Assembly: GCA_037439645.1 (NCBI GenBank)
Contig: JBBIVQ010000007.1
Location: 9,029-73,028, forward strand
Reading direction: 5' to 3'
Source of the DNA: Deltaproteobacteria bacterium
GTDB lineage: Bacteria > Desulfobacterota > Deferrimicrobia > Deferrimicrobiales > Deferrimicrobiaceae
DNA length: 64,000 nucleotides
Shown one piece after another: positions 47,932-63,491 of this stretch. The position numbers and the translations under genes are program-made. Under the pieces are notes generated by a model. That model saw nothing but the letters and a program-made list of their open reading frames with translations, was not told the DNA's origin and ran no database searches. Within the stretch, counting starts at the first letter, position 1. Each line of letters starts with the position of its first letter.

Positions 47932-50202
47932 ATGGCGCTGACCCGGTTGCGCGGGAACGACGCCCGGTATCTGTTCGAGATCTCCGGGGTGAAGGCGGAG
48001 CTTCTGGTGTCGCGGTTCGACCTGTCGGAGGGGGTGTCGGTCCCGTACGAGCTGGCGGTGGAGCTGGCGTGCGAGGACGAGGTGAAGATGGACGACGCGT
48101 TGGGGAAGGAGGGGTTCCTGACGCTGACGGGGGACGGCGGCGACCGGATCGTTCACGGGGTGGTGGACCGGTTCGAGCACATCGGGAACCGGGGCCGGTT
48201 CGGGCTGTACCGGGCGCGCGTGGTTCCGTACCTGCAGTGGCTGTCGCTGGAGCGGGACTGCCGGATCTTCCAGAACAAGAGCGTTCCCGACATCGTGAAG
48301 CAGGTTCTGCAGGATTCGGGGCTTCCGGCGGACCGGTTCGACTTCCGCCTGCAGGGCAGCTACGCGCCGGTGGAGTATTGCGTTCAGTACCGGGAGACGG
48401 ACCTGGACTTCGTGTCGCGGCTTCTGGAGGAGGAGGGGATCTTCTACTTCTTCGAGCACAGCGACGCGAAGCACCTGCTGGTGTTCGCGGACGGTACGGT
48501 GGCGTACAAGGAGATCGCGGGGGAGAGCGGCGTGACGTACAACTTCTCGCAGGGGCTGGCGCCGAAGGAGGAGTGCGTGTACCGGTTCTCCTTCTCGCGG
48601 CAGGCCCGTTCCGGGAAGGTGACGCGCCGGGACTACAACTTCGAGAAGCCGGGCCTGGACCTGACGAAGGACGAGCAGGCGAAGGTCTTCGAGAAGCGCG
48701 AGGTGTACGACTACCCGGGGCGGTACATGGAGCCGGACCGGGGGAAGCATCTGTCGAAGGTGCGTCTCGAGGAGTCGATGACGTATTACGAGGCGGCGGA
48801 GGGGGAGAGCACGTGCGTGCGGCTGGTTCCCGGGTTCAAGTTCTCGCTGTCGGACCACGACCGCGGGGAGTACAACCGGGAGTACTTTCTGACGAGGCTG
48901 GTCACGCGCGGCGAGCAGCCGCAGGCGTTGCAGGAGGCGTCGGGGTCCGGGAGCGCCGGCTTCAGTTACTCGGGGCGTTTCACGGCGATTCCGGCGTCGG
49001 TTCCGTTCCGCCCGGCGCGGGTGACGCCGAAGCCGGTGGTGGAGGGGATCCAGACGGCGACGGTGACGGGTCCGGGCGGGGAGGAGATCTACACGGACAA
49101 GTACGGGCGCGTGAAGGTCCATTTCCACTGGGACCGGACGGGGGGCCGGGACGAGAAGAGCTCGTGCTGGATCCGGGTGTCGTCGACGTTCGCCGGCGGT
49201 CAGTACGGGTCGATCTTCACTCCGCGGATCGGGCAGGAGGTGGTGGTCGATTTCCTGGAGGGGGACCCGGACCGTCCGCTGATCACGGGGAGCGTGTACA
49301 ACGCGGAGCAGATGCCGCCGTACGATCTGCCGGGGGAGAAGACGAAGAGCACGACGAAGACGAACAGTTCGCTCGGCGGGAAGGGGTTCAACGAGATCCG
49401 GTTCGAGGACAAGAAGGGGGAGGAGCAGATCTTCGTCCACGGGGAGAAGGACGCGGACATCCGGATCAAGAACGACCGTCGGGAGTGGGTGGGGAACGAC
49501 CGCCACCTGGTGGTGGCGCGGGACCAGGTGGAGAAGGTGGAGCGGGACCGTCACGCGGAGGTGGTCCGGGACGAGGTGGTGAAGGTGGGGCAGGACCGCC
49601 ACGTCACGGTGGTGGGAAAGGAGGCGGTCGCCGTCCAGGGATCCCACTCCTTCAACGTCACCGGGACGGTCGTCGAGGTGTTCGGAGGCAGCTGTTGTGA
49701 ACTGGTCAGCAACGAGAACTACGTCAAGGCGATGAGCGTCGTGATCGAAGGGATGACGGGGCTCACCCTCAAGGTGGGGAAGAACTTCATCACGATCAAC
49801 AGCGCGGGAGTGTTCATCTCCGGGACGCTGATCAATCTGAATAGCGGCGGGTCGGCGCTGGAGGGAAAGGGCGCGAAGGCCGTTCCCCCGTCGGTGCCTC
49901 TCGCGGCGGCGATCGCCGCGAATACCGTGGCGGGGAAGGATACGACGTACGGAGACAAGCCGACTCACAAGGAGGCGGCGGAGGACGAGGACGAAGAGGA
50001 GAAATCGTGGGTCGAGATCGAGCTGGTCGACGAGAACGGGGAGCCCGTTCCCGGCGAGCGGTACCGCGTGGAGACCCCCGACGGGAAGGTTGCGGAGGGT
50101 ACCCTCGATGAGAAGGGGTTCGCGCGGATCAACCGGGTGAAGCCGGGGAACTGCAAGGTCACCTTCCCGAAGCTCGACAAGGACGCCTGGGAGAAGGCGT
50201 GA
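47932..50202 (+). CDS. vgrG: type VI secretion system spike protein VgrG with ~80-aa C-terminal extension
   Basis: gp27/gp5-like regions (FFEHSD..., DRPLITGSVYNAEQMPPY, repeated SGG/valine-rich beta-helix). The C-terminal extension SWVEIELVDENGEPVPGERYRVETPDGKVAEGTLDEKGFARINRVKPGNCKVTF resembles a small beta-sandwich domain. Confidence 0.9.
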   Translation: MALTRLRGNDARYLFEISGVKAELLVSRFDLSEGVSVPYELAVELACEDEVKMDDALGKEGFLTLTGDGGDRIVHGVVDRFEHIGNRGRFGLYRARVVPYLQWLSLERDCRIFQNKSVPDIVKQVLQDSGLPADRFDFRLQGSYAPVEYCVQYRETDLDFVSRLLEEEGIFYFFEHSDAKHLLVFADGTVAYKEIAGESGVTYNFSQGLAPKEECVYRFSFSRQARSGKVTRRDYNFEKPGLDLTKDEQAKVFEKREVYDYPGRYMEPDRGKHLSKVRLEESMTYYEAAEGESTCVRLVPGFKFSLSDHDRGEYNREYFLTRLVTRGEQPQALQEASGSGSAGFSYSGRFTAIPASVPFRPARVTPKPVVEGIQTATVTGPGGEEIYTDKYGRVKVHFHWDRTGGRDEKSSCWIRVSSTFAGGQYGSIFTPRIGQEVVVDFLEGDPDRPLITGSVYNAEQMPPYDLPGEKTKSTTKTNSSLGGKGFNEIRFEDKKGEEQIFVHGEKDADIRIKNDRREWVGNDRHLVVARDQVEKVERDRHAEVVRDEVVKVGQDRHVTVVGKEAVAVQGSHSFNVTGTVVEVFGGSCCELVSNENYVKAMSVVIEGMTGLTLKVGKNFITINSAGVFISGTLINLNSGGSALEGKGAKAVPPSVPLAAAIAANTVAGKDTTYGDKPTHKEAAEDEDEEEKSWVEIELVDENGEPVPGERYRVETPDGKVAEGTLDEKGFARINRVKPGNCKVTFPKLDKDAWEKA

Positions 50203-50912
50203 TGTGCGCGGCCGGTTCCAAACCGAAGCCCCGCCCGGTTCCGCCCGCGAAGCCCGTAGGGGACGAAGGATACGAGGTGAAGGCGGGCGAGTGCCTCAAC
50301 GTCATCGCCGACCGTTTCGGCTTCTTCTCCAAGACCCTCTGGAACCATCCGAAAAACGAACGGCTGAAAACCGAGCGGAAAGACCCCAACGTCCTTTTGC
50401 CCGGCGACCGGGTCTTCATTCCCGAGAAGAGTCCGCGGGAAGAGTCGGCCGCAACGGAGCAGAGGCAACGCTTCCGGCGCAAGGGCGTCCCCTCCCGGAT
50501 GAAGATACGCCTCCAGCAGTGCGGGACCGCGGAGCCGTACGCGAACAAGCGGTACGTCCTGGACGTCGACGGGAAACTGTCGGACGGAACGGTGGACGGC
50601 GCCGGGAACGTCGATCTTCCGATCCCGCCCGGCACGAGGAAAGCCGTTCTGACCGTGGGAGAGGGGGAGGCGAAGGAAAGCTTCGCCCTCGATTTCGGCG
50701 CGCTCGATCCGCCCGATTCGATCCGCGGAGCGCAGCAGCGGCTTCGGAACCTCGGGTTCCTTTCCGGCGAGCCGGAGGAGAAGTGGAGTCCCGCCAGCGA
50801 GTCCGCGCTTTTCCGATTCCAGGCCCAGCACGTCGTGACGGGCGACGAGGAACCTTCGGGGGTCTTCGACGAGAAGACGAAGGAGAAGCTCAAGGCGCTT
50901 CACGAATGCTGA
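50202..50912 (+). CDS. LysM + beta-sandwich + peptidoglycan-binding (PG_binding_1-like) protein, paralog A
   Basis: Start overlaps the vgrG stop. LysM-like YEVKAGECLNVIADRFG...LLPGDRVFIP. C-terminal RGAQQRLRNLGFLSGEPEEKWSPASESALFRFQAQH resembles PG_binding_1. No signal peptide. Confidence 0.7.
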   Translation: MCAAGSKPKPRPVPPAKPVGDEGYEVKAGECLNVIADRFGFFSKTLWNHPKNERLKTERKDPNVLLPGDRVFIPEKSPREESAATEQRQRFRRKGVPSRMKIRLQQCGTAEPYANKRYVLDVDGKLSDGTVDGAGNVDLPIPPGTRKAVLTVGEGEAKESFALDFGALDPPDSIRGAQQRLRNLGFLSGEPEEKWSPASESALFRFQAQHVVTGDEEPSGVFDEKTKEKLKALHEC

Positions 50913-50951
50913 AGCGGCGAACGTACAACAAAGCACGGATCTGAGGGGAAG

Positions 50952-53900
50952 ATGGCCGATTCGAAATTCACGGTGTCGCAGAGGGCGGACCAGTCGGGGG
51001 TGAACCTCCTGGACAAACGCCCTCCCCTGAAGATCGTCCAGGTCCATTTCCACCATCGGTACTACAGCGGGAAGACGCCGCGGCTCTTTCCCCATCCTTC
51101 GAACAGGATTGCGATCCATTGGCTGGAAAAGGAACTTTTCCCGAAAGGCGACGCCGACAGGGACGGCGGTTCGTCCGACTTCCATTTCGTCTGCAGCCCG
51201 GTCACGCAGCATGCGGAAAAGGCCGGACTCTGGGTGAGCATGATCAACGCGAGCGAGATCCCCGACGGGTTGTACATACTGGAGGTCCCGTTCCAAAGGA
51301 CGATCCCGGGAGGGGGGTCCGAAGAGAAGACCTTCTGCCAGATGGTCCGTATCCGGGCGAAAGTGCTGGCCGTCGGCCCGGACGGAGTTCCGTTCGGCCC
51401 GGATTCCCGCACCGAGCCCGTGGCCTGCGACTGGTTCGCGGGGGACGGGGTGAGCCTCGAGGAGTCGCTGTACAACCTCTTCGCGTACAGGTACGAGGAC
51501 AGCATCGGAGTCCTCCTTGCGGAAGACATGAAGAAGGTCGCGGAGGGTGGAGAGCCCGAGTCGGGGTTCAAGACGTTCCTCGGCGTCGCGGACACGTTCA
51601 AGGAAGCGGCCGCCGGCCTGATCGGCCTCGTGAAGCTCGATTTCGGCTGGTACAAGACCGTCAAGAAGGTCGACTCCTACATGAAGGGGAAGGGGGCGCC
51701 GTCCGTCCTGCGTCTTTTCGAGAAATCGGCGCTCGGGAAGTCGGCGCTGAAGTGGTCGGACGGGAAGATCAAGCAGAACGCGATCGGGATGCTGGTCGAC
51801 AAGGAGGGGAGACAGGTCAAGGAAGTCGACACCCTCCGGAAACTCGAGTACGTCTTCGGCAAACGCGCGAAGGCGGTGGACCACGCCCTGGAAAAACCGC
51901 GCGACCGGTTGAAGGGGTTGAGCGTATCCGAGGTCGGCGAGATCGCTGGCTCCATCGTCGATCTCCTGGGGAACGCGGTCGACGCGTACGAGGTGATGGA
52001 CGGCTTCGTCAAGGCGGACGCCGCCCGGATGGATTTCATGCAGCACCTAACCCGGATGGTCGCCACCAGGACGCGGGAGATGGAGTGGGAGATCGGATAC
52101 GCCGGGGCCGGTTCGGAGGAGCGGAGGAAGTTGCGGGACCGCGCCGCCGCGCCGCCGTGGGAGCGTCACGGCTTCTTCGTGCGCGGGGATCTGACCGCGC
52201 TGGAAGCGTTGAAGATGAAGACCGATCACGCCGCCGGGGAGGCGCATCTCGCCGCCGCGAAATTCACGCTGAAGATGTCGGCGTCCGCCTACGGGATCTC
52301 CGGGCTGGGAGCCGTCGTCGGGGAGAAAGCGGAGAAGGCGTACGAGACGGCGAAATCGGTCGCCTCCTTCGTCGACAAGAACCTCGGTTCGAACGACATC
52401 GAGCGCTGGGTGAAGGAACTTGAAACCCTCTGGCACGACGAAATGGCGTACGCGTCGAACAACAACGAGATCCTTCACCGGTTCATCGGGATGCACCCGC
52501 CCTATACGGAGCGACAGACGATCGCGATGCAGTTCCTGATGCGTGCGAAGGTCCTGTACGGATTGAAGCGGCTGATCGCGATGTGCGGCCCGGCGGTCGA
52601 CAAGGACCGATACGCTTCCGTGATCTCGATGAAGGCGTACATGAAGGACAAGAACGACTGGCTGATCCGGGCCGGCAATTTCCACAAGAACGTGGACGCC
52701 CTGGGGATCAAGGAGTATATCCGCGATTTCTGTCTCGCGGACCGGTTCTGGGTGCGGAAGTCGCACGCCCACCACGACTGGATCCACCACTTCGTCCAAC
52801 TGGATCACGGCGATGCGGAGTACCGCGACGAAGTCCTCCGGAAGAAGGATCCCGGGGACGACAAGTTGTGGTTCGAGGTCGACTTCCAGCGGTACTGGCC
52901 GATCCACTTCATGGACATCGAGGACGTGCACAAGTTCTGCGAGCGGTTTTCGAACGACTGGTCCCCGCTCAAGAGCAAGGACGTGGAACGATGCTACCTT
53001 CAGCGCGGCGAGGCGAAGTGGAGCCCGATCCCGGGATCCGGCGACCGGGCGCTCGAGATCACCCGCTGGGTCGATCTCGCGGACGGCGAGGTGATCGACA
53101 GCGAGACGCCCGTCCGCGCGGTGATGATCTTTTCGGGGACGGCCAGGGTGGCCACCGGGGTCCCGGTGCGGTTCCAGGTCGAGCGGACCGACGGATTCAA
53201 CGTGCCGGGCCCCGCCTACAACACCATCGCCCGCCCCTGCTCGAAGGAGGACGGGGAAGCGATCGGCGTCGAGAAGGGACGCTACGTGGCGATCCTCGAC
53301 TTCACATACTCCTACCGGAAGAAGCAGGCGAAGAATTTTCCGGAGGAACCCGCGAAGATCTACCACGGCATCAAGCCGATGGTCGAGAGCATCGCCTGGG
53401 CGGACGTGGTGAAGGCGACCGAGCTCGCGAAATTCTCCGCCGACTGGCTCTACCACAAGGTCAGTCCGCAGGAGATGACGATGGCGGTCCGGTACGCGGT
53501 CGGAGACGGAAACGTCGCCGGCTACGCGGAAAAGAAGGGCAGGATCTTCTCGACCACGACGGAGATCCGGATGGTGCCCGACGCGGTCGCCCCGCACAAC
53601 GTTGCGGAAAAGGAGATGTTCCACGAACGGAACGAGGCGAAGTTCGGCGACCGTGAATTCCTCCAGCGGTTATGCGCGGAAGCTCCGCCTCCGAAAATGA
53701 AGTTACCTGAGGTGCAGAAAGCGCTCATCCAGTACCTCCGCGGAGAGACCTGGGAAAACCTTTCCGAAAAGACGGTCCTCCAGTATACGGACGCGGTACG
53801 GGTCATCGTCTTCGTGGACGACCTGCTGGACGGCGTTCCGCTTACCGTTCGCTTCGAGCGGACGGACCAGGGCGTCGACGGCCCGTTCTACACTTCCACC

Positions 53901-54452
53901 GTGATCGAGCCCCTGAGGAAGTACGGGTTCCCGGGAAAACTCGGGTACGTGATCTGTCCCTATTATCATTACGCGGTTTGGGACGAAAACATGAGAACCG
54001 GGAAGTTGTCTTTCTACAACGACGGGAACCCGATCTTCGCCGTCAAACCGGTGTGCAAGGTGAGCACCTCCTCGGAATGGATCAACAAGAGCGGATCCAG
54101 GTACCCGACCTACTGGAAGGGGTATACGTTCAAGATCCAGTTCAACCTCGGGACGAACAATCCGAACCCGGGGATCCTGGGGTGGGGCTGGAAAAGCATC
54201 GGGCCGGACGGGATCCGCACCATCCCGTACGATATTCCCTTCGATCTGGAGGGAAGCACGTACACCTCCGAAGCGAGGGATTTCGTCGCCGAGGGGATCA
54301 TCGGCGTCCATTCGAACGACGTCTACGAGTCGAAGCGGCTTTGCACGACGCGCCTGGTCATCGAGAAGAAAGGAAACATCGAAAGGACGAAGATGCTGTC
54401 CAGATTCTTTTCGTATCCGAACTACGCGGATATGACGACGTACTCGTACTGA
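50952..54452 (+). CDS. large orphan protein (1166 aa) between VgrG and PAAR; candidate T6SS cargo effector
   Basis: Single uninterrupted ORF with a GAGGGGAAG RBS. No recognisable domain or repeats. Contains a His-rich stretch (RKSHAHHDWIHHFVQLDHGD). By eye the codon composition is more AT-rich than the core T6SS genes. Confidence 0.6.
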   Translation: MADSKFTVSQRADQSGVNLLDKRPPLKIVQVHFHHRYYSGKTPRLFPHPSNRIAIHWLEKELFPKGDADRDGGSSDFHFVCSPVTQHAEKAGLWVSMINASEIPDGLYILEVPFQRTIPGGGSEEKTFCQMVRIRAKVLAVGPDGVPFGPDSRTEPVACDWFAGDGVSLEESLYNLFAYRYEDSIGVLLAEDMKKVAEGGEPESGFKTFLGVADTFKEAAAGLIGLVKLDFGWYKTVKKVDSYMKGKGAPSVLRLFEKSALGKSALKWSDGKIKQNAIGMLVDKEGRQVKEVDTLRKLEYVFGKRAKAVDHALEKPRDRLKGLSVSEVGEIAGSIVDLLGNAVDAYEVMDGFVKADAARMDFMQHLTRMVATRTREMEWEIGYAGAGSEERRKLRDRAAAPPWERHGFFVRGDLTALEALKMKTDHAAGEAHLAAAKFTLKMSASAYGISGLGAVVGEKAEKAYETAKSVASFVDKNLGSNDIERWVKELETLWHDEMAYASNNNEILHRFIGMHPPYTERQTIAMQFLMRAKVLYGLKRLIAMCGPAVDKDRYASVISMKAYMKDKNDWLIRAGNFHKNVDALGIKEYIRDFCLADRFWVRKSHAHHDWIHHFVQLDHGDAEYRDEVLRKKDPGDDKLWFEVDFQRYWPIHFMDIEDVHKFCERFSNDWSPLKSKDVERCYLQRGEAKWSPIPGSGDRALEITRWVDLADGEVIDSETPVRAVMIFSGTARVATGVPVRFQVERTDGFNVPGPAYNTIARPCSKEDGEAIGVEKGRYVAILDFTYSYRKKQAKNFPEEPAKIYHGIKPMVESIAWADVVKATELAKFSADWLYHKVSPQEMTMAVRYAVGDGNVAGYAEKKGRIFSTTTEIRMVPDAVAPHNVAEKEMFHERNEAKFGDREFLQRLCAEAPPPKMKLPEVQKALIQYLRGETWENLSEKTVLQYTDAVRVIVFVDDLLDGVPLTVRFERTDQGVDGPFYTSTVIEPLRKYGFPGKLGYVICPYYHYAVWDENMRTGKLSFYNDGNPIFAVKPVCKVSTSSEWINKSGSRYPTYWKGYTFKIQFNLGTNNPNPGILGWGWKSIGPDGIRTIPYDIPFDLEGSTYTSEARDFVAEGIIGVHSNDVYESKRLCTTRLVIEKKGNIERTKMLSRFFSYPNYADMTTYSY

Positions 54453-54467
54453 AAAGGAGGCGTATAA

Positions 54468-54788
54468 ATGCCGCCGCAGGCGAGAATCGGAGACTTGTCG
54501 CAATGCCCGGCCGATTTCCACGGGACGCTGGCGTGCCCTCGACAGGTGATCGGACCGGCGATCCAGGGGTCGCCCGACGTCCTCGTGAACTTCCTTCCTG
54601 CCGTCCGGGTGGGGGACATGGGGATCCACGCGGCGTGCTGCGGTCCCAACACGTGGAAGGCGGCGATGGGGAGCAAGACCGTCTTCATCAACGGCATGCC
54701 CGCGCACCGGCTGGGGGACATGGATCAGCATTGCGGCGGCGTCGGGACGATGGTCGGGGGGAGCCCGAACGTTTTCACGGGCGGGTGA
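54468..54788 (+). CDS. PAAR-domain protein (T6SS spike tip)
   Basis: AAGGAGG RBS. 106 aa with PAAR-like motifs (PAVRVGDM..., PAHRLGDMDQHCGG). Confidence 0.85.
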   Translation: MPPQARIGDLSQCPADFHGTLACPRQVIGPAIQGSPDVLVNFLPAVRVGDMGIHAACCGPNTWKAAMGSKTVFINGMPAHRLGDMDQHCGGVGTMVGGSPNVFTGG

Positions 54789-54819
54789 TCTTCTCCGCGC
54801 GGGAACGGGGAGCGTATCC

Positions 54820-55449
54820 GTGCCAAGCAGACACAAGGTCCGACAGGGAGAGGACGTTTCCGGCATCGCCGCGGAATACGGCGTACCGGTGAAGAAGGTG
54901 GTCGACCACCCCGACAACGCGTCGCTGAAAAGCGAGCGGAAGGGGCTCACGATCCTTCGCCCCGGGGACGTCGTCGTGGTTCCGGACCGGGAGGACCGCG
55001 AAGAGACCGCGGGGACGGGGCAGAAGACCCGCTTCCGGAGAAAGTCGGGGACGACGATGCTCCGGCTCAAACTGCTCGACGACGATTTCCGGCCGCGGGC
55101 GAACGTCAAGTACAAGCTCGTCGTCGGGGGAAAGACGTCGGAGGGGTCGACCGACGGCTCCGGAATGCTGAAGGAGCCGGTACCGCCCGGTGCGGCGCAG
55201 GGGCACCTGATCCTGGACGGGAAGGACGTTCTCCCCCTCTCGTTCGCCGCCCTCGATCCGGCCGATTCCCTGAGCGGGGTCCGTCAAAGGCTGTCCAACC
55301 TTGGTTTCGCCGCGGGGGACGGCGACGGCCCGATGGACGGGAAGACGCGGGGAGCGCTCCGGCGCTTCCAGAAAACGCACGGGCTGAACGAAACGGGTGA
55401 TGCGGATGCCGCGACGAAGGCGAAACTCGAGGAAGTCCACGGCACCTGA
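54820..55449 (+). CDS. LysM + beta-sandwich + peptidoglycan-binding protein, paralog B
   Basis: GTG start with a GGGGAG RBS. Same architecture as 50202..50912 (HKVRQGEDVSGIAAEYG...LRPGDVVVVP, then GVRQRLSNLGFAAGDGDGPMDGKTRGALRRFQKTHGL). Confidence 0.7.
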   Translation: MPSRHKVRQGEDVSGIAAEYGVPVKKVVDHPDNASLKSERKGLTILRPGDVVVVPDREDREETAGTGQKTRFRRKSGTTMLRLKLLDDDFRPRANVKYKLVVGGKTSEGSTDGSGMLKEPVPPGAAQGHLILDGKDVLPLSFAALDPADSLSGVRQRLSNLGFAAGDGDGPMDGKTRGALRRFQKTHGLNETGDADAATKAKLEEVHGT

Positions 55450-55467
55450 GGCGTCACGGGAGGTCTC

Positions 55468-55980
55468 TTGGCGGGCGGGCACGCGGTTCCGAGGAGGGGG
55501 GAGGGGGAGGGCGGAAACGCGGCGGTACGCCTGCGGGAGATCCGGGTGTACTTCCAGAAGTTCCCCGGCACGGCGGCCGGCGCCGGTATCGATCATCTGG
55601 AATATTCGGTGACCGTCGGCGACGCGCCGCCCGTCCAGGGGCGGACGGGGAGCGACGGGATGATCGCGATATCGCTCGCTCCGGGCGCCACCGCGACCTT
55701 GCGGGTCCTTGGAACCGAGTACGCGCTCAGCCTGATGGATGAATTGTTCCCGATCGAGGAGATGCGGGGGGTGCAGCAGCGCCTGGAGATGCTGGGATAC
55801 TTCTCCGGGCCCCTGAAGGGGGACGACGCGCGCGCGGACACCTACGTGAACCCCGACGTTGCGACGGAACGGGCGATCCTCGATTTCCAGGCGGACAACG
55901 GCCTGTTCGCCGATGCGCAGTTCGGTTCGACGTCTTCAAGAACGCTGAAGAACGTGGTGCGGAGCGCAAGGGGGGAGTGA
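55468..55980 (+). CDS. beta-sandwich + peptidoglycan-binding protein, paralog C (no LysM)
   Basis: Middle and C-terminal parts align with paralogs A and B (GVQQRLEMLGYFSGPLKGDDARADTYVNPDVATERAILDFQADNGL). Start uncertain (TTG at 55468 after GGGAGG). Confidence 0.5.
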   Translation: MAGGHAVPRRGEGEGGNAAVRLREIRVYFQKFPGTAAGAGIDHLEYSVTVGDAPPVQGRTGSDGMIAISLAPGATATLRVLGTEYALSLMDELFPIEEMRGVQQRLEMLGYFSGPLKGDDARADTYVNPDVATERAILDFQADNGLFADAQFGSTSSRTLKNVVRSARGE

Positions 55981-55990
55981 GGAAGGAAGG

Positions 55991-57184
55991 ATGTTCCTGT
56001 TTCCGGTCCATAAATGGATGAGGGTCGTGCCGGTCCGGTTCCAACGGGCGCCAGACGCGGACGATCCTTCCGTGGAGAGCGGACCGCCGGATGCGAACGC
56101 CCCGGATCCCGACGACCGCGGGTTCCTCCCGGCCGACCAGGGGTGCGCGGTTCTGCCGGTGGGGATCGACGAATCGCTGGACGAGACGCGTCACCCGGAG
56201 ACGCGCGTCCGGTTGATCCGTCAGAACATGGAAGAGGCCGGGGTCCTCCATGTGGTCTCCTCCGTCCCGGACCGACTGGAGGTCACCGTCCCCGCCCCCG
56301 GCGCCGCCCTGCCCTCCGCCCGGAGGATGATGGTCAAGTTCAAGGCGAAATCCGCGGGGGAGGCGTACCTCGAGGTCCGGTTCGGTTCGGCGGAGGGGCC
56401 GGTCATCCACCGCCTCCGCGTGGTCGTAAGCCCACCGCGGGACGTGCGTCTCGCGGCGCACGTTCCGACGGTCAACGGGGCGGCGGTCAACGATCCCTCG
56501 GGGGACCCGGGGGCCGTCGTGCCGTCCCGATCCTTCCGGAGCGACGACGAGATCCTCGGATTGATCGAGGAGGTCAACCAGATCTACTTCCCGTACGGGA
56601 TCCGGTTCATCCCGGAGCCCGTGATCGACCGGGCCGGCGTCCTGGATTTCAGGCACCAGGGGTTCATACACGTCCTGACCGGCGAATTCAATCGGACCAC
56701 GGCCCTGAACCGGGTCGCCGGGGCCGTGAACATGTATTTCGTCCCCCAGATCCAGTTCGCCGATACGACGATCGTGAACCACTGGGGAGGGGCGGCCAAC
56801 AGTTCGCGGGGAGCCCCCCGGACATTCGGCTCGATCATCGCGGACGTGGCGGTCGGGGGGCAGACGGTTTCCCACGAACTCGGGCATGTCCTGAACCTCG
56901 TGAAAGACAGGGCGTATCAGCACGTGAACACGAGGATGGATCCGGCCCACCCCGGGAGCGGAAGGAACGTCCGGGACGACATCGTCTCCCGCCGGCGCCT
57001 GATGTGGGCATACACTGATTTTCTTCATATTGACGGGATGGGATACCGTGACGATGTCGGATACGACATCGGAAACCCCGGATGCATGTTGACCGTAAAG
57101 AACATCGACGGCGACCCGACGGACGACGAGATGGCGGAAGTGATGCGGAACGCGGCGCGGCTCGCCGCCCCGCCCAGGCCGTGA
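55991..57184 (+). CDS. HExxH zinc metallopeptidase; candidate T6SS effector
   Basis: 397 aa. VSHELGHVLNL zinc-binding motif. No signal peptide. Sits in the cargo region after the PAAR and PG-binding genes. Confidence 0.65.
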   Translation: MFLFPVHKWMRVVPVRFQRAPDADDPSVESGPPDANAPDPDDRGFLPADQGCAVLPVGIDESLDETRHPETRVRLIRQNMEEAGVLHVVSSVPDRLEVTVPAPGAALPSARRMMVKFKAKSAGEAYLEVRFGSAEGPVIHRLRVVVSPPRDVRLAAHVPTVNGAAVNDPSGDPGAVVPSRSFRSDDEILGLIEEVNQIYFPYGIRFIPEPVIDRAGVLDFRHQGFIHVLTGEFNRTTALNRVAGAVNMYFVPQIQFADTTIVNHWGGAANSSRGAPRTFGSIIADVAVGGQTVSHELGHVLNLVKDRAYQHVNTRMDPAHPGSGRNVRDDIVSRRRLMWAYTDFLHIDGMGYRDDVGYDIGNPGCMLTVKNIDGDPTDDEMAEVMRNAARLAAPPRP

Positions 57185-58065
57185 AAAGGAACGTATTACG
57201 CGCACTGTTCGCGGTCGGCTGGGTGGTCCTGTCGCTCGCGGCCGCGAATTGCCACGGAATCGAAAAAGAATCCGGCAGGCTTCACAAGCCGGCCGGGGAG
57301 GAAACGGGGATGAGCGCACAGGCGGAGTTGGAACGCCTTCTCGCGGATGGGGATTTTCGGGCGGTCGAGGCGGCCGCCGCGATGGGCGATGCCGCTGCTC
57401 CCGCCCTTCGAAAGGGCGCGGGGATGCCGGGGTACCGGTCGCGACAGGTCGCGATGGCGTGCGCCGGGAAGATCGGAGGGGACGTCGCGGGGGAGATCCT
57501 CGCCCTCGGGTTGAAGGACGGGAACGTCAACGTGCGGGTGACCGCGGCGGGGCAGCTGTCCGTGAATCCCCCCGAATACGCGAAGGATGCGGTCCTTTCG
57601 ACGCTGGTCCGAAGCACCGAGACGGATGTCCGGGAGATGCTCGCGTATTCCGCGGGGTATTTCCCCGGAGAACGGACAATCGCCGTCCTTCGATCGGTCG
57701 CTTCCGGAAAAGAGGTCCTGGCCTCGAACGCAAGGTTGGCGCTGGCACGGCTGGGAGACCCGGCAGGCAGGGATGCCGTCCTGAACGACCTCGCCTCTCC
57801 CGATCCGCTGGTCCGGTACGATACCTTGGGCGGCTTGCGGTACGTGAACGACCCGTCGCTGGCGGATCGCGTCAAGCCCCTGCTGCTCGATACGAAGGAG
57901 GCGCAGGCGATCGGCCCGGGAGGCGGGTGGAGGCATCGCCGGGTTTGCGACCAGGCGGTCGACACGCTGGTGTATCTGTTGAAACTGAAGGTCCCGTTTC
58001 CGACGGGCGAGGAAACGATCTACACCGAGGAACAGTTGCTCCACGTTCGGGACCTGACCCGGTAA
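57181..58065 (+). CDS. periplasmic HEAT/PBS-lyase-repeat protein; candidate immunity protein
   Basis: GTG start overlapping the peptidase stop. Signal peptide VKRNVLRALFAVGWVVLSLAAANCHG. Repeats of the form LALGLKDGNVNVRVTAA and DPLVRYDTLGGL. Confidence 0.55.
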   Translation: MKRNVLRALFAVGWVVLSLAAANCHGIEKESGRLHKPAGEETGMSAQAELERLLADGDFRAVEAAAAMGDAAAPALRKGAGMPGYRSRQVAMACAGKIGGDVAGEILALGLKDGNVNVRVTAAGQLSVNPPEYAKDAVLSTLVRSTETDVREMLAYSAGYFPGERTIAVLRSVASGKEVLASNARLALARLGDPAGRDAVLNDLASPDPLVRYDTLGGLRYVNDPSLADRVKPLLLDTKEAQAIGPGGGWRHRRVCDQAVDTLVYLLKLKVPFPTGEETIYTEEQLLHVRDLTR

Positions 58066-58072
58066 ACGCACG

Positions 58073-58939
58073 ATGCCCTGGCCCCCGAACGACATGTTCG
58101 TCCAGTTGGCCAAGATGAATTTCGTCGCCAAGGGGATCAAGCTCCCGGTCGATTGGAAAGAGATGACGGACAAGATCACCGATCCTTCGAACCGTGCGGG
58201 GCGCGACATGTACCCCGAGGCGTTCAAGCCCCACGAACGGACGGTTCCGCCGAATTCTCCCATGAACCTGTTCCGTGAAGCGACCGCGAACAAGTACCAT
58301 GTCGGAACGGCGAAGGAGATAGGGGAACAGTACGCGAAGTTCATCGAGGGGATCTGTGGAGCGATCTCCTCGGCCATCGGCCAGTGGTTGAGCGCCGCCA
58401 CGGTCGTCGGCGTGAACATCGTCGGGCCGGTCGGCATTCTTCACCCGGGCTGCGTGGTCGGTCCGCCGCTCATCCCCCTGATCCTTTCGTCCGCTCCCAA
58501 GGCGACCCCGATGGAACTGAAGTTTTCGATGGCCGTCGCGAACGCGCTCGGGACGATGTGGCTCCCGTGGCACATCGGCCTGGCCGGCGTCATCATGTAC
58601 CCCGCCTTCGCCGCGGTGCCTGCGCCGGTGGCGCCTCCGATGCCGAACGTCCCCGTCCCGCTCGTCGCGTGCGCCTCTCCGGGCGAGGCGGGACTCTCTC
58701 CGTCGACGCTGAAAGCGCTGATGGATGCGAACCTCGCCGACCCGACCGCGCTGCACGCATCGGACCTGTTCGACGCGATTTCGAAGGCGTTCAACACGGT
58801 GTTCCTGATGTTCAAGGGGACGACCCTGGTGAAAAACGTGATCGGCACGGGGCCGGTTCCCACGTTCGCGCCTCCGGTCGTTCCGGTCGGTCCCGTCCTG
58901 GGCGGGATCGGGAACGGCCCACCCGGGTGCCTCTCCTGA
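58073..58939 (+). CDS. hypothetical protein (288 aa) in T6SS cargo region
   Basis: GC3-rich ORF with no recognised domain. Hydrophobic central segments (VVGVNIVGPVGILHPGCVVGPPLIPLIL). Confidence 0.45.
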   Translation: MPWPPNDMFVQLAKMNFVAKGIKLPVDWKEMTDKITDPSNRAGRDMYPEAFKPHERTVPPNSPMNLFREATANKYHVGTAKEIGEQYAKFIEGICGAISSAIGQWLSAATVVGVNIVGPVGILHPGCVVGPPLIPLILSSAPKATPMELKFSMAVANALGTMWLPWHIGLAGVIMYPAFAAVPAPVAPPMPNVPVPLVACASPGEAGLSPSTLKALMDANLADPTALHASDLFDAISKAFNTVFLMFKGTTLVKNVIGTGPVPTFAPPVVPVGPVLGGIGNGPPGCLS

Positions 58940-58963
58940 CATGGCAGGCGCGGAGGAAAGACC

Positions 58964-59995
58964 TTGAAGATCGGGAACGAGACTCCCTTCGAAGCGGAGG
59001 CGCTTCCGTTCCTCGATGGGGAAGGGAAGCCGTTCCTGACGGTCGTCGTGAAGGGGACGTTCGCGATCGTTCCCGAAGGCGTCGCCGCGGTGGACGGCGC
59101 GCAGATCCCGATCCTGTACGGGGACGAACACACCGACCCGGAAAAGGGAGGGAGCCCGAAGTTCGAGGCGGACACGGCCCCGTTCAAACCGAGGGCCGAT
59201 GTTCTCCTGGTCGGCAAGGCGCACGCGCCGGGGGGGAAACCGGTGCGTTGGCTGGACGCCGGGCTTCGCGTCGGGGCGTTGCAAAAGGTCGTTCGCGTCT
59301 TCGGGGATCGCGCGTGGATCTCCGGAGCGGGGAAATTATCCGCTCCCGTGTTCACCGATCCGGAGCCGTTCACGGAGATGCCGCTGGTCTACGAGAGGGC
59401 GTTCGGCGGGATAGATGCGGAGTCCGGCGGATTCTGCGCGGAGAACCCGGTCGGATGCGGTTTCTATACGAGGAAATCGCCTGCCAGGATCGACGGGGCG
59501 CCGCTTCCGAACATCGAGCACGCATCCAGGCCGATCCGTTCCTGGACCGACCATCCGGGACCTGCGGGGTTCGGCTGCGTCGCGAAGGGATGGGCTCCGC
59601 GGGTCCGCCATTCGGGAACATACGACGAGACGTGGGAGAGGGAGCGATCCCCACTCCCTCCGGCCGACTTCCGGTACGACTTCTACAACGCCGCTCCCCC
59701 CGAACTCCAGGTAGAAGGGTATCTCCGGGGGGACGAGGAGATCCTCCTGCTGAACCTCGAGAAGGACGGAAAAGTCCGTTTCCGGTTGCCGGGGATCGCA
59801 CCGGCGGCCACCATCGAAAAGACGGAGCGTTGGAGCGGACCGTCGTGGAACGAGCCGGCGCCCATGCGCCTCGACACCCTTTGTCTCCTGCCGGAAGAGG
59901 GGCGATTATTCCTCGTGTGGCGGGGACGCTGTCCCCTGGCGGACCTCTCCGCTCTGGAGGTGGAGACCGTGCGCGTCGTCGCGGCAATTCCATGA
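58964..59995 (+). CDS. DUF2169-family protein (T6SS adaptor-associated family)
   Basis: TTG start after a GGAGGAAAG RBS. MKIGNETPFEAEALPFLDGEGKPFLTVVVKGTFAI is the characteristic DUF2169 N-terminus, a family found next to vgrG/PAAR cargo genes. Confidence 0.7.
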   Translation: MKIGNETPFEAEALPFLDGEGKPFLTVVVKGTFAIVPEGVAAVDGAQIPILYGDEHTDPEKGGSPKFEADTAPFKPRADVLLVGKAHAPGGKPVRWLDAGLRVGALQKVVRVFGDRAWISGAGKLSAPVFTDPEPFTEMPLVYERAFGGIDAESGGFCAENPVGCGFYTRKSPARIDGAPLPNIEHASRPIRSWTDHPGPAGFGCVAKGWAPRVRHSGTYDETWERERSPLPPADFRYDFYNAAPPELQVEGYLRGDEEILLLNLEKDGKVRFRLPGIAPAATIEKTERWSGPSWNEPAPMRLDTLCLLPEEGRLFLVWRGRCPLADLSALEVETVRVVAAIP

Positions 59996-60011
59996 CACGA
60001 AGGGAGTCCGC

Positions 60012-60791
60012 ATGAGGACGATCTGGTTGACCTCTCTCGGCCGGTCCGAGGAAAACGTGAAGAAGGTGGTTGCCCTCCTGAAGCCGTACGGTGTCCCGGT
60101 CCAGGGCCATTTCTGGGTCGATGACCTGCCGAAGATCGCCTGGATGGCCCCCCGCGAGGAGATGATCAAGTCCGACGTGGCCGCCTGGGTGATCCTCGCC
60201 ACGGCGGAGACGTTCGCTGCCCCCTCGGTGCGTCGCGGTCTTTCCCTCCTTGCGATCACGGTGCAGGCGAAAAAGGGGCTTTCGTTCCCCATCGTTCTTC
60301 TCGCGGAGGGTGGGGGAGCGCCGCCCGCGCCGCCGTTTCCCACGCCGCTCGCGGGAGCGGAAATCCTGTCGGCGGCGGACCCGGGGCTGGCGGCGAAGAT
60401 CGTCGCGATGCTCCACACACCGCGCAAGGACCCGGCGGCGGAATACCGGATCGACGTGTACGGGAGCACGCATATCGGTCTCTGGTTCGAGGTGGGTCCC
60501 CGGGTCGGCCGGTGGGATGGTGCGATGTTCGGCGTCGCCGGAAGCGAGATCCTCTTCCACGGGAGCGGGCCGATGGAGATGCTCCCGGCGCAATGCACTC
60601 TCGAATGGCCGGTGAAGGGGATGAAACTCTCCCACGGTGACCGGGAGTACGAGGCGTGGGGTGTCCGGAACGGGTTCGAATCCCGCAGTTCGTATTTCGT
60701 GAAGGTCAAGGAGTGCCCCGAGTCGGTCCTCTTCGGTCCCTTTCCCGCGGAGGGGGAGGCCGCCGATTTGTACGTGGTCGCGCTAACCTGA
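60012..60791 (+). CDS. hypothetical protein (259 aa)
   Basis: MRTIWLTSLGRSEENVKKVVALLKPYGVPVQGHFWVDD... has a Rossmann-like/TIR-like N-terminal feel, but there is no confident assignment. Confidence 0.45.
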   Translation: MRTIWLTSLGRSEENVKKVVALLKPYGVPVQGHFWVDDLPKIAWMAPREEMIKSDVAAWVILATAETFAAPSVRRGLSLLAITVQAKKGLSFPIVLLAEGGGAPPAPPFPTPLAGAEILSAADPGLAAKIVAMLHTPRKDPAAEYRIDVYGSTHIGLWFEVGPRVGRWDGAMFGVAGSEILFHGSGPMEMLPAQCTLEWPVKGMKLSHGDREYEAWGVRNGFESRSSYFVKVKECPESVLFGPFPAEGEAADLYVVALT

Positions 60792-60870
60792 TGAACGCGA
60801 AGGGCAATTTGTATTGGCGGACGGGATATGGTATCCAAGTAGGGAAAAACCACGCCAGGAAGGACGACCG

Positions 60871-61635
60871 ATGAACCCGGATGCGATCGCCAGGAAAAAC
60901 CTCGACAACGCCGAGTTCGTGCAACTTCGTCGCGCGACCGACAAGATCGCGTCCTTCCTGAACAAGCGCCTGTCGGGCCACCTCGATGTCCTGAAATCCC
61001 TCTTCATCGCGCGTGCGCTTCTCGGTTCGTACGTCAAAAGCGCTTCGATGGAGGACGTGCCGGTATCCGACAAAGCGTTCGCCGACCTTCAGGAACGGTT
61101 CGCGGCGGTTTGCGAGAAGCCGTTCGGTCTCCCGAGGAAGCTCCAGACGCCCCTGCCTCCGATCGCGACCCAGATCGACGCGTCCCCCTTTCGGTATTCG
61201 CTCGCGATCCCCGGGGAGGCGAAACCGGTTGTCGTCTCCTCACCGACCCGATGGGTCCTGTCGTACCGGGGGGAGTGCCCGCTTTCGCGGATCCGTTCGA
61301 TGGTCGCGGGAACCGAGTCCCGCGTTCCCGACGAGATGCGGCAAGGATTGCTCAACCATATCGCGTTGGTGGTCTACCTGAAATATTTCCCGACGGTGGG
61401 GCAGCTCCTCTCGGACCTGCGGTACAGCGTGGAAGTCGAAACCTTGCCGGACCTCGGAGGGCTCCCGGTGGTGATCCTCACCGCGCCGCTTCCCACGTTC
61501 CTGCCTGCGGACGATTTCATACAGCAAGTCACCCAGCTCTCGGGGATCGCCGCGTTCCAGGAGATCATCGACCGCGAGGCGATCGATCGGATCCCCGATC
61601 TGTTGAAGGATTCGCTCCGCAACCTCCTCTCCTGA
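60871..61635 (+). CDS. hypothetical protein (254 aa)
   Basis: ATG at 60871 with an AGGAAGGA RBS. No recognised domain. Confidence 0.45.
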   Translation: MNPDAIARKNLDNAEFVQLRRATDKIASFLNKRLSGHLDVLKSLFIARALLGSYVKSASMEDVPVSDKAFADLQERFAAVCEKPFGLPRKLQTPLPPIATQIDASPFRYSLAIPGEAKPVVVSSPTRWVLSYRGECPLSRIRSMVAGTESRVPDEMRQGLLNHIALVVYLKYFPTVGQLLSDLRYSVEVETLPDLGGLPVVILTAPLPTFLPADDFIQQVTQLSGIAAFQEIIDREAIDRIPDLLKDSLRNLLS

Positions 61636-61691
61636 TAAGATGGCGTTGCGGTACGTGCCGTCCCTGATCACACCGTAGGGAAGAAGGGAAC

Positions 61692-63491
61692 ATGCCCAAT
61701 TTCCAGCCGACCCGATTCGGGAAATATCTCCTCCTCGAAAAACTCGCGACGGGCGGGATGGCCCAGTTGTACCGGGCGAAGATCATCGGCGTCGAGGGGT
61801 TCGAGAAGTTCATCGCCATCAAGCAGATCCTTCCCCATCTCGCCCACGAGGAGGAGCTGATCACCTCCTTCATCGACGAGGCGAAGCTGGCCGCCCTCCT
61901 GAACCACCAGAACATCGTGCAGATCTACGATTTCGGCTCCATGGAAAATTCGTACTTCATCACGATGGAGTTTCTTCACGGGAAGGACCTTCGCGGAGTC
62001 AATGCGAAGGCGAAAGAGAAGGGGATCCCGATCAGCCTCGAAAATTCGCTGTTCCTGATCTCCAAGGTGTGCGCCGGGCTCGATTACGCCCACAAGCTGA
62101 AGGATTTCCAGGGGAAATCCCTGAACATCATCCACCGGGACATCTCCCCCCAGAACGTCTTCCTCACCTACCAGGGGGACGTCAAGATCGTGGACTTCGG
62201 GATCGCCAAGGCGGCGAGTCAGAGCACGATCACCCAGGTCGGGATGATCAAGGGGAAGGTCGCGTACATGTCGCCGGAGCAGGCGGCGGGGAAAGTGATC
62301 GACCACCGGTCCGACATCTTCGCCACGGGGATCCTCCTCTATGAACTGGTCGCGGGCGGCCGCATGTTCAAGGGGGACGACACCCTCCAGATCCTGTCGA
62401 AGGTCCGGGATGCCGATTTCACTCCGCTCGGGACGTTGAAGGGCGGGCTTCCCGAAAAATTGTACGACATCGTCGAGAAGGCGCTCGCCAAGGAGCCGGA
62501 AAACCGGTACCAGTCGTGCGGCGACATGCAGGCCGATATCGAAGAGTGCATCTTCCGGCTCAACTTGAGGCCTTCCGGTCGCACCCTGGCCGACTACCTC
62601 GGGTTGCTGTTTGCCGAAGAGATCGAGGCGGAAGGGAAACGGATGGCCGACACCGCGGAGGCGGGGGCGGTGAGCGACCGGGCCCGCGACGCGGAAGCGG
62701 AGCGACGGGCGGCAGCCGTCCCTTCGGCGCCGCCTCCTCCCGCCGACAGGTCGGAGACGCCACCCCCGTCTCCGCCGAAGCCCGCGCGAAATACCGCGAC
62801 TGCGTCGAGCGAACCTGCCAAGGGCGGGAAAAAAGGAATTTTCGCCGCCGTCGCGGGGGTGGCCGTAGCCGCTCTTCTCGCCGGCGGATACCTGCTGACG
62901 GGGAAGGGAAAGGAGACGGCCGGCACGGCCGCGACGGCAACGGCAACGGCGACGAGCCCTTCGGCTGCGGTCCCGGCGGTCCCCTCGTCTCCCCCTCCCG
63001 CCGCGGCGAAGGCGGCACCCGCGCCGTCACCGTCCGCGGAAGCGTCGGAACTTGTGCGGAAAGGCACGGGACTCGTCGAGTCGAACCCGGCGGAGGCGAA
63101 GTCCATCCTCCTGCAGGCGATCGCGAAGGATCCGCGGAGCGTCCAGGGACATTTCCAGCTCGGACACGCCTACGTGAAGATGAAAGAGTACCCGGAAGCG
63201 CTCGCCGCTTACGCGAAGGCGGGCGAGGTCGACCCGAAGTTCGCGGACGCCTTCTTCAATATGGGCTACGTTCACGCCGTCCGGAAGGAGTACGCCAAGG
63301 CGGAGGGGATGTACGAGAAGGTGGTCGCGCTCTCCCCCATGTACCTTGACGAAGCGTTGTACAACCTCGGGATGATCCAGGAAAAGATCGGAAAGCGGAA
63401 GGAGAGTCTCCGGAACATCGAGAAGGCTCTGTCGATCAATCCCGGAAACGAACCGGCGAGGAAAGCCCTCGCCAGGTTGAAGGGGAAATAG
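61692..63491 (+). CDS. Ser/Thr protein kinase with C-terminal TPR repeats
   Basis: Hanks-type kinase: GKYLLLEKLATGGMAQLYRA, AIKQI, HRDISPQNVFL, DFGIAKA, SPEQ. Then a Pro/Ala-rich linker, a TM segment and TPR repeats (AYAKAGEVDPKFADAFFNMGYVH...). Confidence 0.85.
   Translation: MPNFQPTRFGKYLLLEKLATGGMAQLYRAKIIGVEGFEKFIAIKQILPHLAHEEELITSFIDEAKLAALLNHQNIVQIYDFGSMENSYFITMEFLHGKDLRGVNAKAKEKGIPISLENSLFLISKVCAGLDYAHKLKDFQGKSLNIIHRDISPQNVFLTYQGDVKIVDFGIAKAASQSTITQVGMIKGKVAYMSPEQAAGKVIDHRSDIFATGILLYELVAGGRMFKGDDTLQILSKVRDADFTPLGTLKGGLPEKLYDIVEKALAKEPENRYQSCGDMQADIEECIFRLNLRPSGRTLADYLGLLFAEEIEAEGKRMADTAEAGAVSDRARDAEAERRAAAVPSAPPPPADRSETPPPSPPKPARNTATASSEPAKGGKKGIFAAVAGVAVAALLAGGYLLTGKGKETAGTAATATATATSPSAAVPAVPSSPPPAAAKAAPAPSPSAEASELVRKGTGLVESNPAEAKSILLQAIAKDPRSVQGHFQLGHAYVKMKEYPEALAAYAKAGEVDPKFADAFFNMGYVHAVRKEYAKAEGMYEKVVALSPMYLDEALYNLGMIQEKIGKRKESLRNIEKALSINPGNEPARKALARLKGK

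Follow-up and report, generated by a model that had tools for sequence, protein, structure and literature searches.

The subject of this analysis is a stretch of 64,000 nucleotides (nt) from a Deltaproteobacteria bacterium of the family Deferrimicrobiaceae (assembly GCA_037439645.1, contig JBBIVQ010000007.1, positions 9,029 to 73,028), in the following called the window, and within it a gene for a DUF2169-family protein that is surrounded by the genes of three unannotated proteins of 288, 259, and 254 amino acids (aa), here designated H288, U259, and U254 (positions 58073 to 61635 of the window). Comparison with related loci revealed that the conserved unit in this region is a module encoding a canonical PAAR protein, H288, and the DUF2169 protein, in this order. 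H288, which is neither PAAR- nor PIPY-like and shows a tight reciprocal co-occurrence with one clade of DUF2169 proteins, is a credible non-canonical DUF2169 client. Two studies (2025-2026) describe DUF2169, also termed TvpA, as working with DUF4150/PIPY cones and assign every such system to one of three synteny types or classes, whereas in several hundred loci from at least six phyla DUF2169 is paired instead with a canonical PAAR protein and an unannotated hydrophobic protein.

Genomic setting and conservation of the module

The four open reading frames (ORFs), as described in an initial sequence-only reading of the window, were verified at their coordinates; all of them are located on the plus strand and are separated by intergenic gaps of 7-79 nt. 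Together they form the distal end of a VgrG spike/effector operon within a complete type VI secretion system (T6SS) cluster, which is encoded in the window on the same strand (TssK, TssM, TssA, TssB/C, TssF, ClpV, and VgrG). The same reading had implied that the DUF2169 gene is placed outside of a vgrG/PAAR context. This turned out to be incorrect, since a VgrG gene is located upstream on the same strand, at a distance of 8.8 kb from the DUF2169 gene, and a canonical PAAR gene 3.3 kb upstream of the H288 gene. The genes on which the argument is built are the following:

47932..50202 (+), VgrG spike protein, 756 aa, opening the spike/effector operon; Pfam Phage_GPD (3.5e-92), Phage_base_V, and Gp5_trimer_C
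54468..54788 (+), canonical PAAR tip protein, 106 aa; PF05488 at 4.2e-13, PAxRxGD motifs
58073..58939 (+), H288, proline-rich hydrophobic protein, 288 aa; unannotated family
58964..59995 (+), DUF2169/TvpA-type chaperone, 343 aa; PF09937 at 1e-98, TTG start

The PAAR protein is a stand-alone protein to which H288 is not fused. It matches the solved cones 9rce_c (1e-10), 4jiw (3e-8), and 4jiv (2e-5) as well as SalCis10, and its match to DUF4150 is sub-threshold only (21 bits vs a cut-off of 31). Across related loci the PAAR protein is 58-73% identical. The gene order in relatives is PAAR-H288-DUF2169 with gaps of approximately 10-80 nt, and in most of them PAAR directly precedes H288; in the window, the two genes are separated by an inserted cassette (54820-58065).

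For the analysis of gene neighborhoods, hidden Markov models (HMMs) were built and 83 H288-centered loci were scanned, with gene calling in high-GC loci being heuristic; counts refer to 51 species loci flanked on both sides by 3 kb or more of sequence and to neighbors within 3 kb. Near H288, a PAAR gene was present in 33 of the 51 loci (65%), a DUF2169 gene in 21 (41%), and both in 17. The gene of an S-adenosylmethionine (SAM)-dependent methyltransferase was a neighbor in 13 loci and that of a mini-VgrG (OB fold, ~279 aa) in 9, and another 13 loci contained none of these four genes close to H288. Five arrangements could be distinguished. The first, PAAR-(methyltransferase)-H288-DUF2169, is found within T6SS vgrG islands of many phyla, with a gap between H288 and DUF2169 of mostly 3-80 nt. 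The second and third, methyltransferase-H288-PAAR and H288-miniVgrG-PAAR, are from Myxococcota. In the fourth, H288 adjoins a DUF2169 protein of ~800 aa bearing an insertion, and the fifth consists of orphan H288 genes adjoining housekeeping genes. H288 and DUF2169 without a nearby PAAR gene occurred in 4 of the 51 loci; examples of this situation are L042, L082, and the loci with an insertion-bearing DUF2169, L036, L041, and L052 (L numbers designate the related loci throughout).

The association was also approached from the side of DUF2169, using a DUF2169-centered metagenome scan as an independent sample, in which genes with enough upstream sequence were evaluated. H288 was encoded immediately upstream of 27 of the 28 DUF2169 genes that are at least 48% identical to the one of the window, but only of 5 of 19 more distant ones, which are instead preceded by genes for pentapeptide-repeat proteins or carry an N-terminal FHA fusion. 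This reciprocal and clade-specific pairing constitutes the strongest evidence suggesting that H288 and DUF2169 proteins of the window type cooperate.

Some further features of these neighborhoods were observed. H288 is missing from six metagenome loci (L139, L157, L160, L163, L168, and L170) whose DUF2169 proteins are 43-47% identical to that of the window. In these loci, the DUF2169 gene either is preceded by genes for pentapeptide-repeat proteins that stand alone or encodes an FHA domain at the N-terminus of the protein; immediately downstream follows a U254-like gene in convergent orientation, and small proteins of the SMI1/KNR4 type are encoded in the vicinity. The SAM-dependent methyltransferase has ~345 aa and combines a Trm112-like zinc ribbon at its N-terminus with a class I methyltransferase domain; its gene either separates PAAR from H288 or immediately precedes H288 (L012:1315-2343, L005:8531-9592, L018:8937-9992), and it also occurs in several metagenome loci. 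It is spread over Gammaproteobacteria, Desulfobacterota, Acidobacteriota, Poribacteria, and Myxococcota, and no copy is present in the window. In L092, a PKMT-like methyltransferase gene follows a PIPY gene. The literature searched contained no mention of a spike-tip-associated methyltransferase. Triads of H288, mini-VgrG (Phage_base_V OB fold followed by a beta-helix), and PAAR were found as orphans among housekeeping genes in L045-L047, L064, L065, L069, L071, L074, and L080, which belong to Myxococcota and other groups.

The DUF2169 protein

By means of an aromatic loop, DUF2169 proteins cover a hydrophobic surface of PIPY cones that is made up of proline and aromatic residues (Sachar et al. 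2025, PMC11883445). The DUF2169 protein of the window matches model positions 2-294 of the 294 positions of PF09937 and is related to the protein of the crystal structure 8VTH_A (phmmer, 1.2e-20). In the alignment with the latter, the Tyr and Trp of its loop motif GTYDETW coincide with F210 and W214 of GTFDDNW. The TTG start codon of the gene is preceded by a GGAGG ribosome-binding site. Linkage of DUF2169 with vgrG is present in the window as well as in related loci.

Co-occurrence of DUF2169 with DUF4150/PIPY was reported to be strict (PMC11883445), but this is not the case in the window, where no PF13665 (DUF4150/PIPY) match above the cut-off was obtained. A PIPY HMM, built from only 3 sequences, likewise gave no match in either the window or the H288 loci, although it does detect the PIPY gene that adjoins the second DUF2169 gene of L029. 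Furthermore, Pfam scans of the operon proteins (50199-63491) yielded neither a TvpC (DUF6484/DUF3540) nor a pentapeptide TvpB, a thiolase-like TvpD, or a DUF1795 protein; for DUF6484 there was a sub-threshold match only, located inside VgrG itself.

In L029, one DUF2169 gene is placed after PAAR and H288, and the second one follows VgrG and is itself followed by the PIPY gene (L029:8346-10219, L029:13831-18978). This locus thus resembles a natural internal control and suggests that each of the two DUF2169 proteins has its own client.

Properties and distribution of H288

The sequence-only reading had described the 288-aa protein as hydrophobic and the three proteins flanking DUF2169 as unannotated and not PAAR-like, all of which was borne out. 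H288 has a grand average of hydropathy (GRAVY) of +0.31, a proline content of 12.8%, and three uncharged stretches of 54, 50, and 34 residues. Its proline motifs include PGPVAPPxPNIPxPL and GPIPTFAPPxVPVGPV. A conserved N-terminal helix (residues ~1-28) is followed by a variable linker (~29-73) and a conserved core (~74-288), and the AlphaFold2 (AF2) model, with a predicted template modeling (pTM) score of 0.73, is mainly helical. Neither the single sequence nor the family members matched any Pfam or NCBIfam model (42-150 members were scanned for H288, U259, and U254), and nothing significant was found in the PDB by fold, by single sequence, or by family profile. A relationship to PIPY or PAAR, with H288 as a divergent cone, was considered and rejected: the hhalign probability is 0.2%, the AF2 model is helical, and there is no PF13665 match. 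The only overlap in the hhalign alignment of H288 with PIPY is a PxPN-type motif of 19 columns, which is a lead rather than evidence.

At least 946 homologs of ~276 aa, all annotated as "hypothetical", were found. A profile search against 1.84 billion representatives yielded 732 clusters (50% identity) at E<=1e-3, and with one genome scanned per species, relatives turned up in no fewer than 255 species. The H288 loci span Desulfobacterota, Nitrospirota, Gammaproteobacteria, Acidobacteriota, Fibrobacterota, and Myxococcota. Across Desulfobacterota, Nitrospirota, and Acidobacteriota, H288 is ~60% identical, a conservation which equals that of PAAR and exceeds that of VgrG, TssF, and DUF2169. A scan of viral contigs contained no relative, so that a phage origin of H288 is unsupported. 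In the broad family no polar residue is invariant, which argues against H288 being an enzyme.

The N-terminal 30-70 residues are restricted to the stand-alone, PAAR-linked forms of H288. In some genomes the N-terminus and the core are separated by a Gly-rich insert or are split into two ORFs, as in L091:6165-7350, L119, and L123, where the split or insert follows the conserved N-terminal ~36 residues. Such forms fit an architecture of docking helix plus core.

Approximately 9 out of 150 representatives are fusions. In P0426 of L089, H288 carries a C-terminal phage lysozyme domain and the gene directly follows a PAAR gene; in P0407 the H288 core stands behind DUF4157/eCIS_core and in P0501 behind a partial PIPY domain. 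Other forms combine the core with Sec or Tat signals and CARDB, and fusions with PG_binding domains exist as well. The H288 core is therefore a mobile domain, which recombines with trafficking and toxin domains. The lysozyme fusion near PAAR and the forms with DUF4157, Sec/Tat signals, or CARDB suggest that H288 leaves the cytoplasm.

Possible role of H288

We give slightly better than an even chance to a model, in part reaching beyond synteny, domain content, and fusions, in which H288 is a spike-tip passenger chaperoned by DUF2169. H288 is the only hydrophobic, proline-rich protein of the module, the cone is canonical, and the loop aromatics of DUF2169 are kept. DUF2169 would act here as it does for PIPY: in the cytoplasm, its aromatic loop would cover the hydrophobic, proline-rich surfaces of H288 and maintain the protein in a state fit for loading. 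H288 would sit on the tip formed by VgrG and PAAR, the probable means of attachment being its conserved N-terminal helix, and would be fired with the spike, with DUF2169 remaining behind. The uncharged, proline-rich core might then engage the membrane or envelope of the target, be it as a membrane-active effector without enzymatic activity or as an aid to penetration or translocation for co-delivered cargo. That H288 is membrane- or envelope-active appears probable, although this is in part an extrapolation.

Several observations weigh against this model. The AF2 model is only moderately confident (predicted local distance difference test, pLDDT, of 76) and depicts a globular helical bundle instead of clear transmembrane helices. 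The existence of forms with Sec or Tat signals implies that the H288 core is tolerated in the periplasm of the producer itself, and the very high conservation of H288 is atypical of effectors. Many H288 genes of Myxococcota have no DUF2169 gene nearby, being accompanied by PAAR only or being orphans among housekeeping genes, so that a DUF2169 gene in cis cannot be a universal requirement. Finally, no conserved candidate for an H288 immunity gene emerged from the 83 and 80 loci inspected, in which the only conserved neighbors were PAAR, DUF2169, the methyltransferase, and mini-VgrG, and the lack of a conserved immunity gene is unusual for an antibacterial membrane toxin. Candidates downstream of DUF2169 were considered for this function and rejected, since these ORFs encode Hsp20 or TagF-like proteins or are spurious antisense ORFs. 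The missing immunity gene and the conservation at the level of structural genes favor a role in penetration/translocation or in assembly over that of a classical toxin.

An assembly role would also be compatible with H288 staying inside the producing cell. According to this explanation, which we regard as unlikely, H288 is not secreted but serves as an assembly factor or co-chaperone, like TvpD or TvpB, and helps, together with DUF2169, PAAR to assemble on VgrG. Besides the cross-phylum conservation and the absence of a conserved immunity gene just mentioned, the constancy of H288 beside variable cargo (phospholipase D, PG-binding proteins, the 1166-aa protein described below) speaks for it, and the H288-mini-VgrG-PAAR triads of Myxococcota recall the TvpC-PAAR pre-complex and its logic (PMC13373197). 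It is difficult to reconcile, however, with the fusion to lysozyme near PAAR and the DUF4157, Sec/Tat, and CARDB forms, which point to an exit from the cytoplasm; in addition, the long uncharged segments of H288 look in need of shielding and do not suggest a chaperone, and H288 shows no similarity to the thiolase-like TvpD or the pentapeptide TvpB.

Alternatively, the client of DUF2169 could be the PAAR protein, an arrangement known from Class I Tvp systems (VgrG-PAAR-TvpA), with H288 being ordinary PAAR/VgrG-dependent cargo that is loaded independently. TvpA is defined as stabilizing a DUF4150/PAAR-containing protein (PMC13373197), most loci with H288 and DUF2169 contain PAAR proteins of one conserved clade, and the PAAR protein of the window has a weak, sub-threshold Tox-PAAR-like match. 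Nevertheless, we consider this explanation quite improbable. The PAAR protein of the window is canonical, and canonical PAARs do not need DUF2169 and are rarely encoded adjacent to it (PMC11883445); the immediate neighbor of DUF2169 is H288 and not PAAR; the 4 loci mentioned above hold H288-DUF2169 pairs without PAAR nearby; and the conserved PAAR clade accompanies H288 in Myxococcota even where DUF2169 is absent.

If H288 is a DUF2169-chaperoned passenger, DUF2169 would be a more general chaperone of hydrophobic spike-tip passengers, a large family of "hypothetical proteins" would gain a role, and the contribution of hydrophobic tip elements to the crossing of target membranes would become testable on a separable component. 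In a more far-reaching form, which is put forward only tentatively and which we consider possible but doubtful, the PAAR-H288-DUF2169 module might represent a fourth Tvp/DUF2169 class, in which the shielded hydrophobic surface resides not on the cone, as in PIPY, but on a separate, detachable, proline-rich protein that is mounted on a canonical Zn-PAAR and serves as a membrane-insertion/translocation module of the spike. Since a dedicated SAM methyltransferase gene is located between PAAR and H288 in many lineages, H288 might in this case also be modified by the enzyme.

U259 and U254

Downstream of the DUF2169 gene, the operon continues with the genes of U259 and U254, which lie outside the PAAR-H288-DUF2169 module, in the interval that separates the variable spike region from the FHA/PP2C/kinase regulators:

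60012..60791 (+), U259, T6SS-cluster accessory protein, 259 aa; 186 homologs, no Pfam match
60871..61635 (+), U254, T6SS-cluster accessory protein, 254 aa, mostly paired with U259
61692..63491 (+), Ser/Thr kinase with TPR, 599 aa; Pfam Pkinase (1.3e-37) and TPR

The kinase gene opens the regulatory block, and the same gene follows U254 in the relatives L005-L007. Neither U259 nor U254 matched a Pfam or NCBIfam model, with single sequences as well as with family members, and no significant sequence match to the PDB was obtained for either of them, including a search with the family profile for U259. Both families are of constant length, the homologs of U259 having ~258 aa and all of those of U254 ~255 aa, which supports the start codon giving a U254 of 254 aa. 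The proteins of both families are ~50-60% identical across genomes.

U259 is also found in L086, L087, L088, and L092, and U254 in the same loci except L087. The spike modules of L086, L087, and L092 are of the DUF2169-pentapeptide/DUF3540/PIPY kind and that of L088 is a DUF4123 module; none of them contains H288. This occurrence together with other spike modules indicates that U259 and U254 are lineage-specific T6SS accessory proteins and not a DUF2169-dependent effector with its immunity protein. For the latter possibility, which is very improbable, only the position downstream of the adaptor gene and the missing annotation could be adduced, against which stand the constant lengths and the identity across genomes, the absence of a signal peptide or transmembrane segment from both proteins, the association with PIPY/DUF3540/pentapeptide or DUF4123 modules devoid of H288, and the location, which is always at the border with FHA/PP2C/kinase genes and often beside a fused VipA-VipB sheath paralog. 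The idea of the sequence-only reading that the proteins around DUF2169 include a non-canonical DUF2169-dependent effector and its immunity protein, to be recognized by the T6SS linkage of their homologs, was hence justified in part: H288, linked to PAAR and DUF2169, is a credible client, but U259 and U254 are not such a pair, their homologs accompanying other spike modules too, and H288 has no conserved immunity gene. Two false effector/immunity candidates are thereby removed, and U259 and U254 stand out instead as conserved accessory proteins of novel structure from a T6SS lineage that has received little study.

The fused VipA-VipB protein has ~520-560 aa (Pfam T6SS_VipA and VipB) and is present in addition to the normal TssB/TssC, for example in L008:13680-15296 (-). 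It was also found in L014, L017, L018, L028, L040, L087, L088, L092, L111, and L118, but not in the window, and its gene adjoins those of U254/U259 and the FHA/PP2C genes.

Putative cargo genes of the operon

The remaining part of the operon, between VgrG and H288, contains the following genes in addition to PAAR:

50952-54452, 1166-aa protein, between VgrG and PAAR
54820..58065 (+), four-gene cassette inserted between PAAR and H288, recognized by Pfam matches
54820-55449, cassette gene 1, LysM/PG_binding protein, 209 aa
55468-55980, cassette gene 2, PG_binding protein, 170 aa
55991-57184, cassette gene 3, HExxH-motif protein, 397 aa, without Pfam match
57181-58065, cassette gene 4, HEAT-repeat protein with signal peptide, GTG start

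The GTG start of the HEAT gene at 57181 overlaps the preceding stop codon (GTGA). At the position between PAAR and H288, the cassette is found in close relatives only, namely in L006 and, with at least its last two genes, in L007; L020 and L021 contain the same cassette at a different location. The cassette probably encodes a peptidoglycan-directed effector and its periplasmic immunity protein. The interval between VgrG and PAAR holds one PG_binding protein and the 1166-aa protein. The latter, for which neither Pfam nor NCBIfam gave a match and whose counterpart in L006 is 91% identical, is likely to be a large cargo effector. The C-terminus of VgrG (49900-50202) consists, as judged by eye, of an acidic linker and ~70 residues outside any Pfam model, and these additional residues could be a cargo adaptor domain. 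In L016, L020, and L024, a phospholipase D protein of ~1000 aa (PLDc and PLDc_2, Tle5-like) is encoded directly after PAAR-H288-DUF2169, and the module therefore adjoins different cargo effectors in different genomes.

Comparison with known systems

A search of the literature yielded no description of the H288 family or of the PAAR-H288-DUF2169 arrangement. H288 bears some resemblance to pore-forming effectors such as Ssp6, Tse4, and VasX. Like the non-enzymatic membrane-targeting effectors of T6SSs in general, it is hydrophobic, contains no catalytic motifs, is encoded in a vgrG island, and would depend on the spike tip. It differs from them in the lack of detected similarity to solved proteins and of an adjacent immunity gene and in its far higher cross-phylum conservation. 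A VgrG1-dependent depolarizing activity has been described in Serratia (PMC13373197). With prePAAR/Eag (DUF1795) systems, the module shares the concept of a hydrophobic segment on the PAAR tip that is shielded by a chaperone until firing. Unlike in these systems, H288 is not fused to PAAR and the chaperone is a DUF2169 and not a DUF1795 protein; moreover, unlike the N-terminal transmembrane domains of prePAAR effectors, the hydrophobic segments of H288 are rich in Pro and Gly and are modeled within a globular bundle rather than as classic transmembrane helices.

The closest comparison is that with the DUF2169-DUF4150/PIPY systems. Here as there, a single-domain DUF2169 protein, homologous to 8VTH and with the loop aromatics retained, belongs to a vgrG operon; the putative client, encoded next to the chaperone, is rich in proline and hydrophobic. 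In contrast to these systems, the cone is a canonical Zn-type PAAR, and the hydrophobic, proline-rich element is a separate, mainly helical protein that is not homologous to PIPY. The Tvp classes I-III all share a contact between DUF2169 and PAAR/PIPY (Monlezun et al. 2026, PMC13373197), and the window differs from classes II and III in being without TvpC, TvpB, and TvpD. The locus accordingly fits none of the synteny types A-C or Tvp classes I-III as they are defined. A set of DUF2169 genes that all encode single-domain proteins, approximately 20% of the total, was left uncategorized (PMC11883445), and the PAAR-H288-DUF2169 arrangement may be among them.

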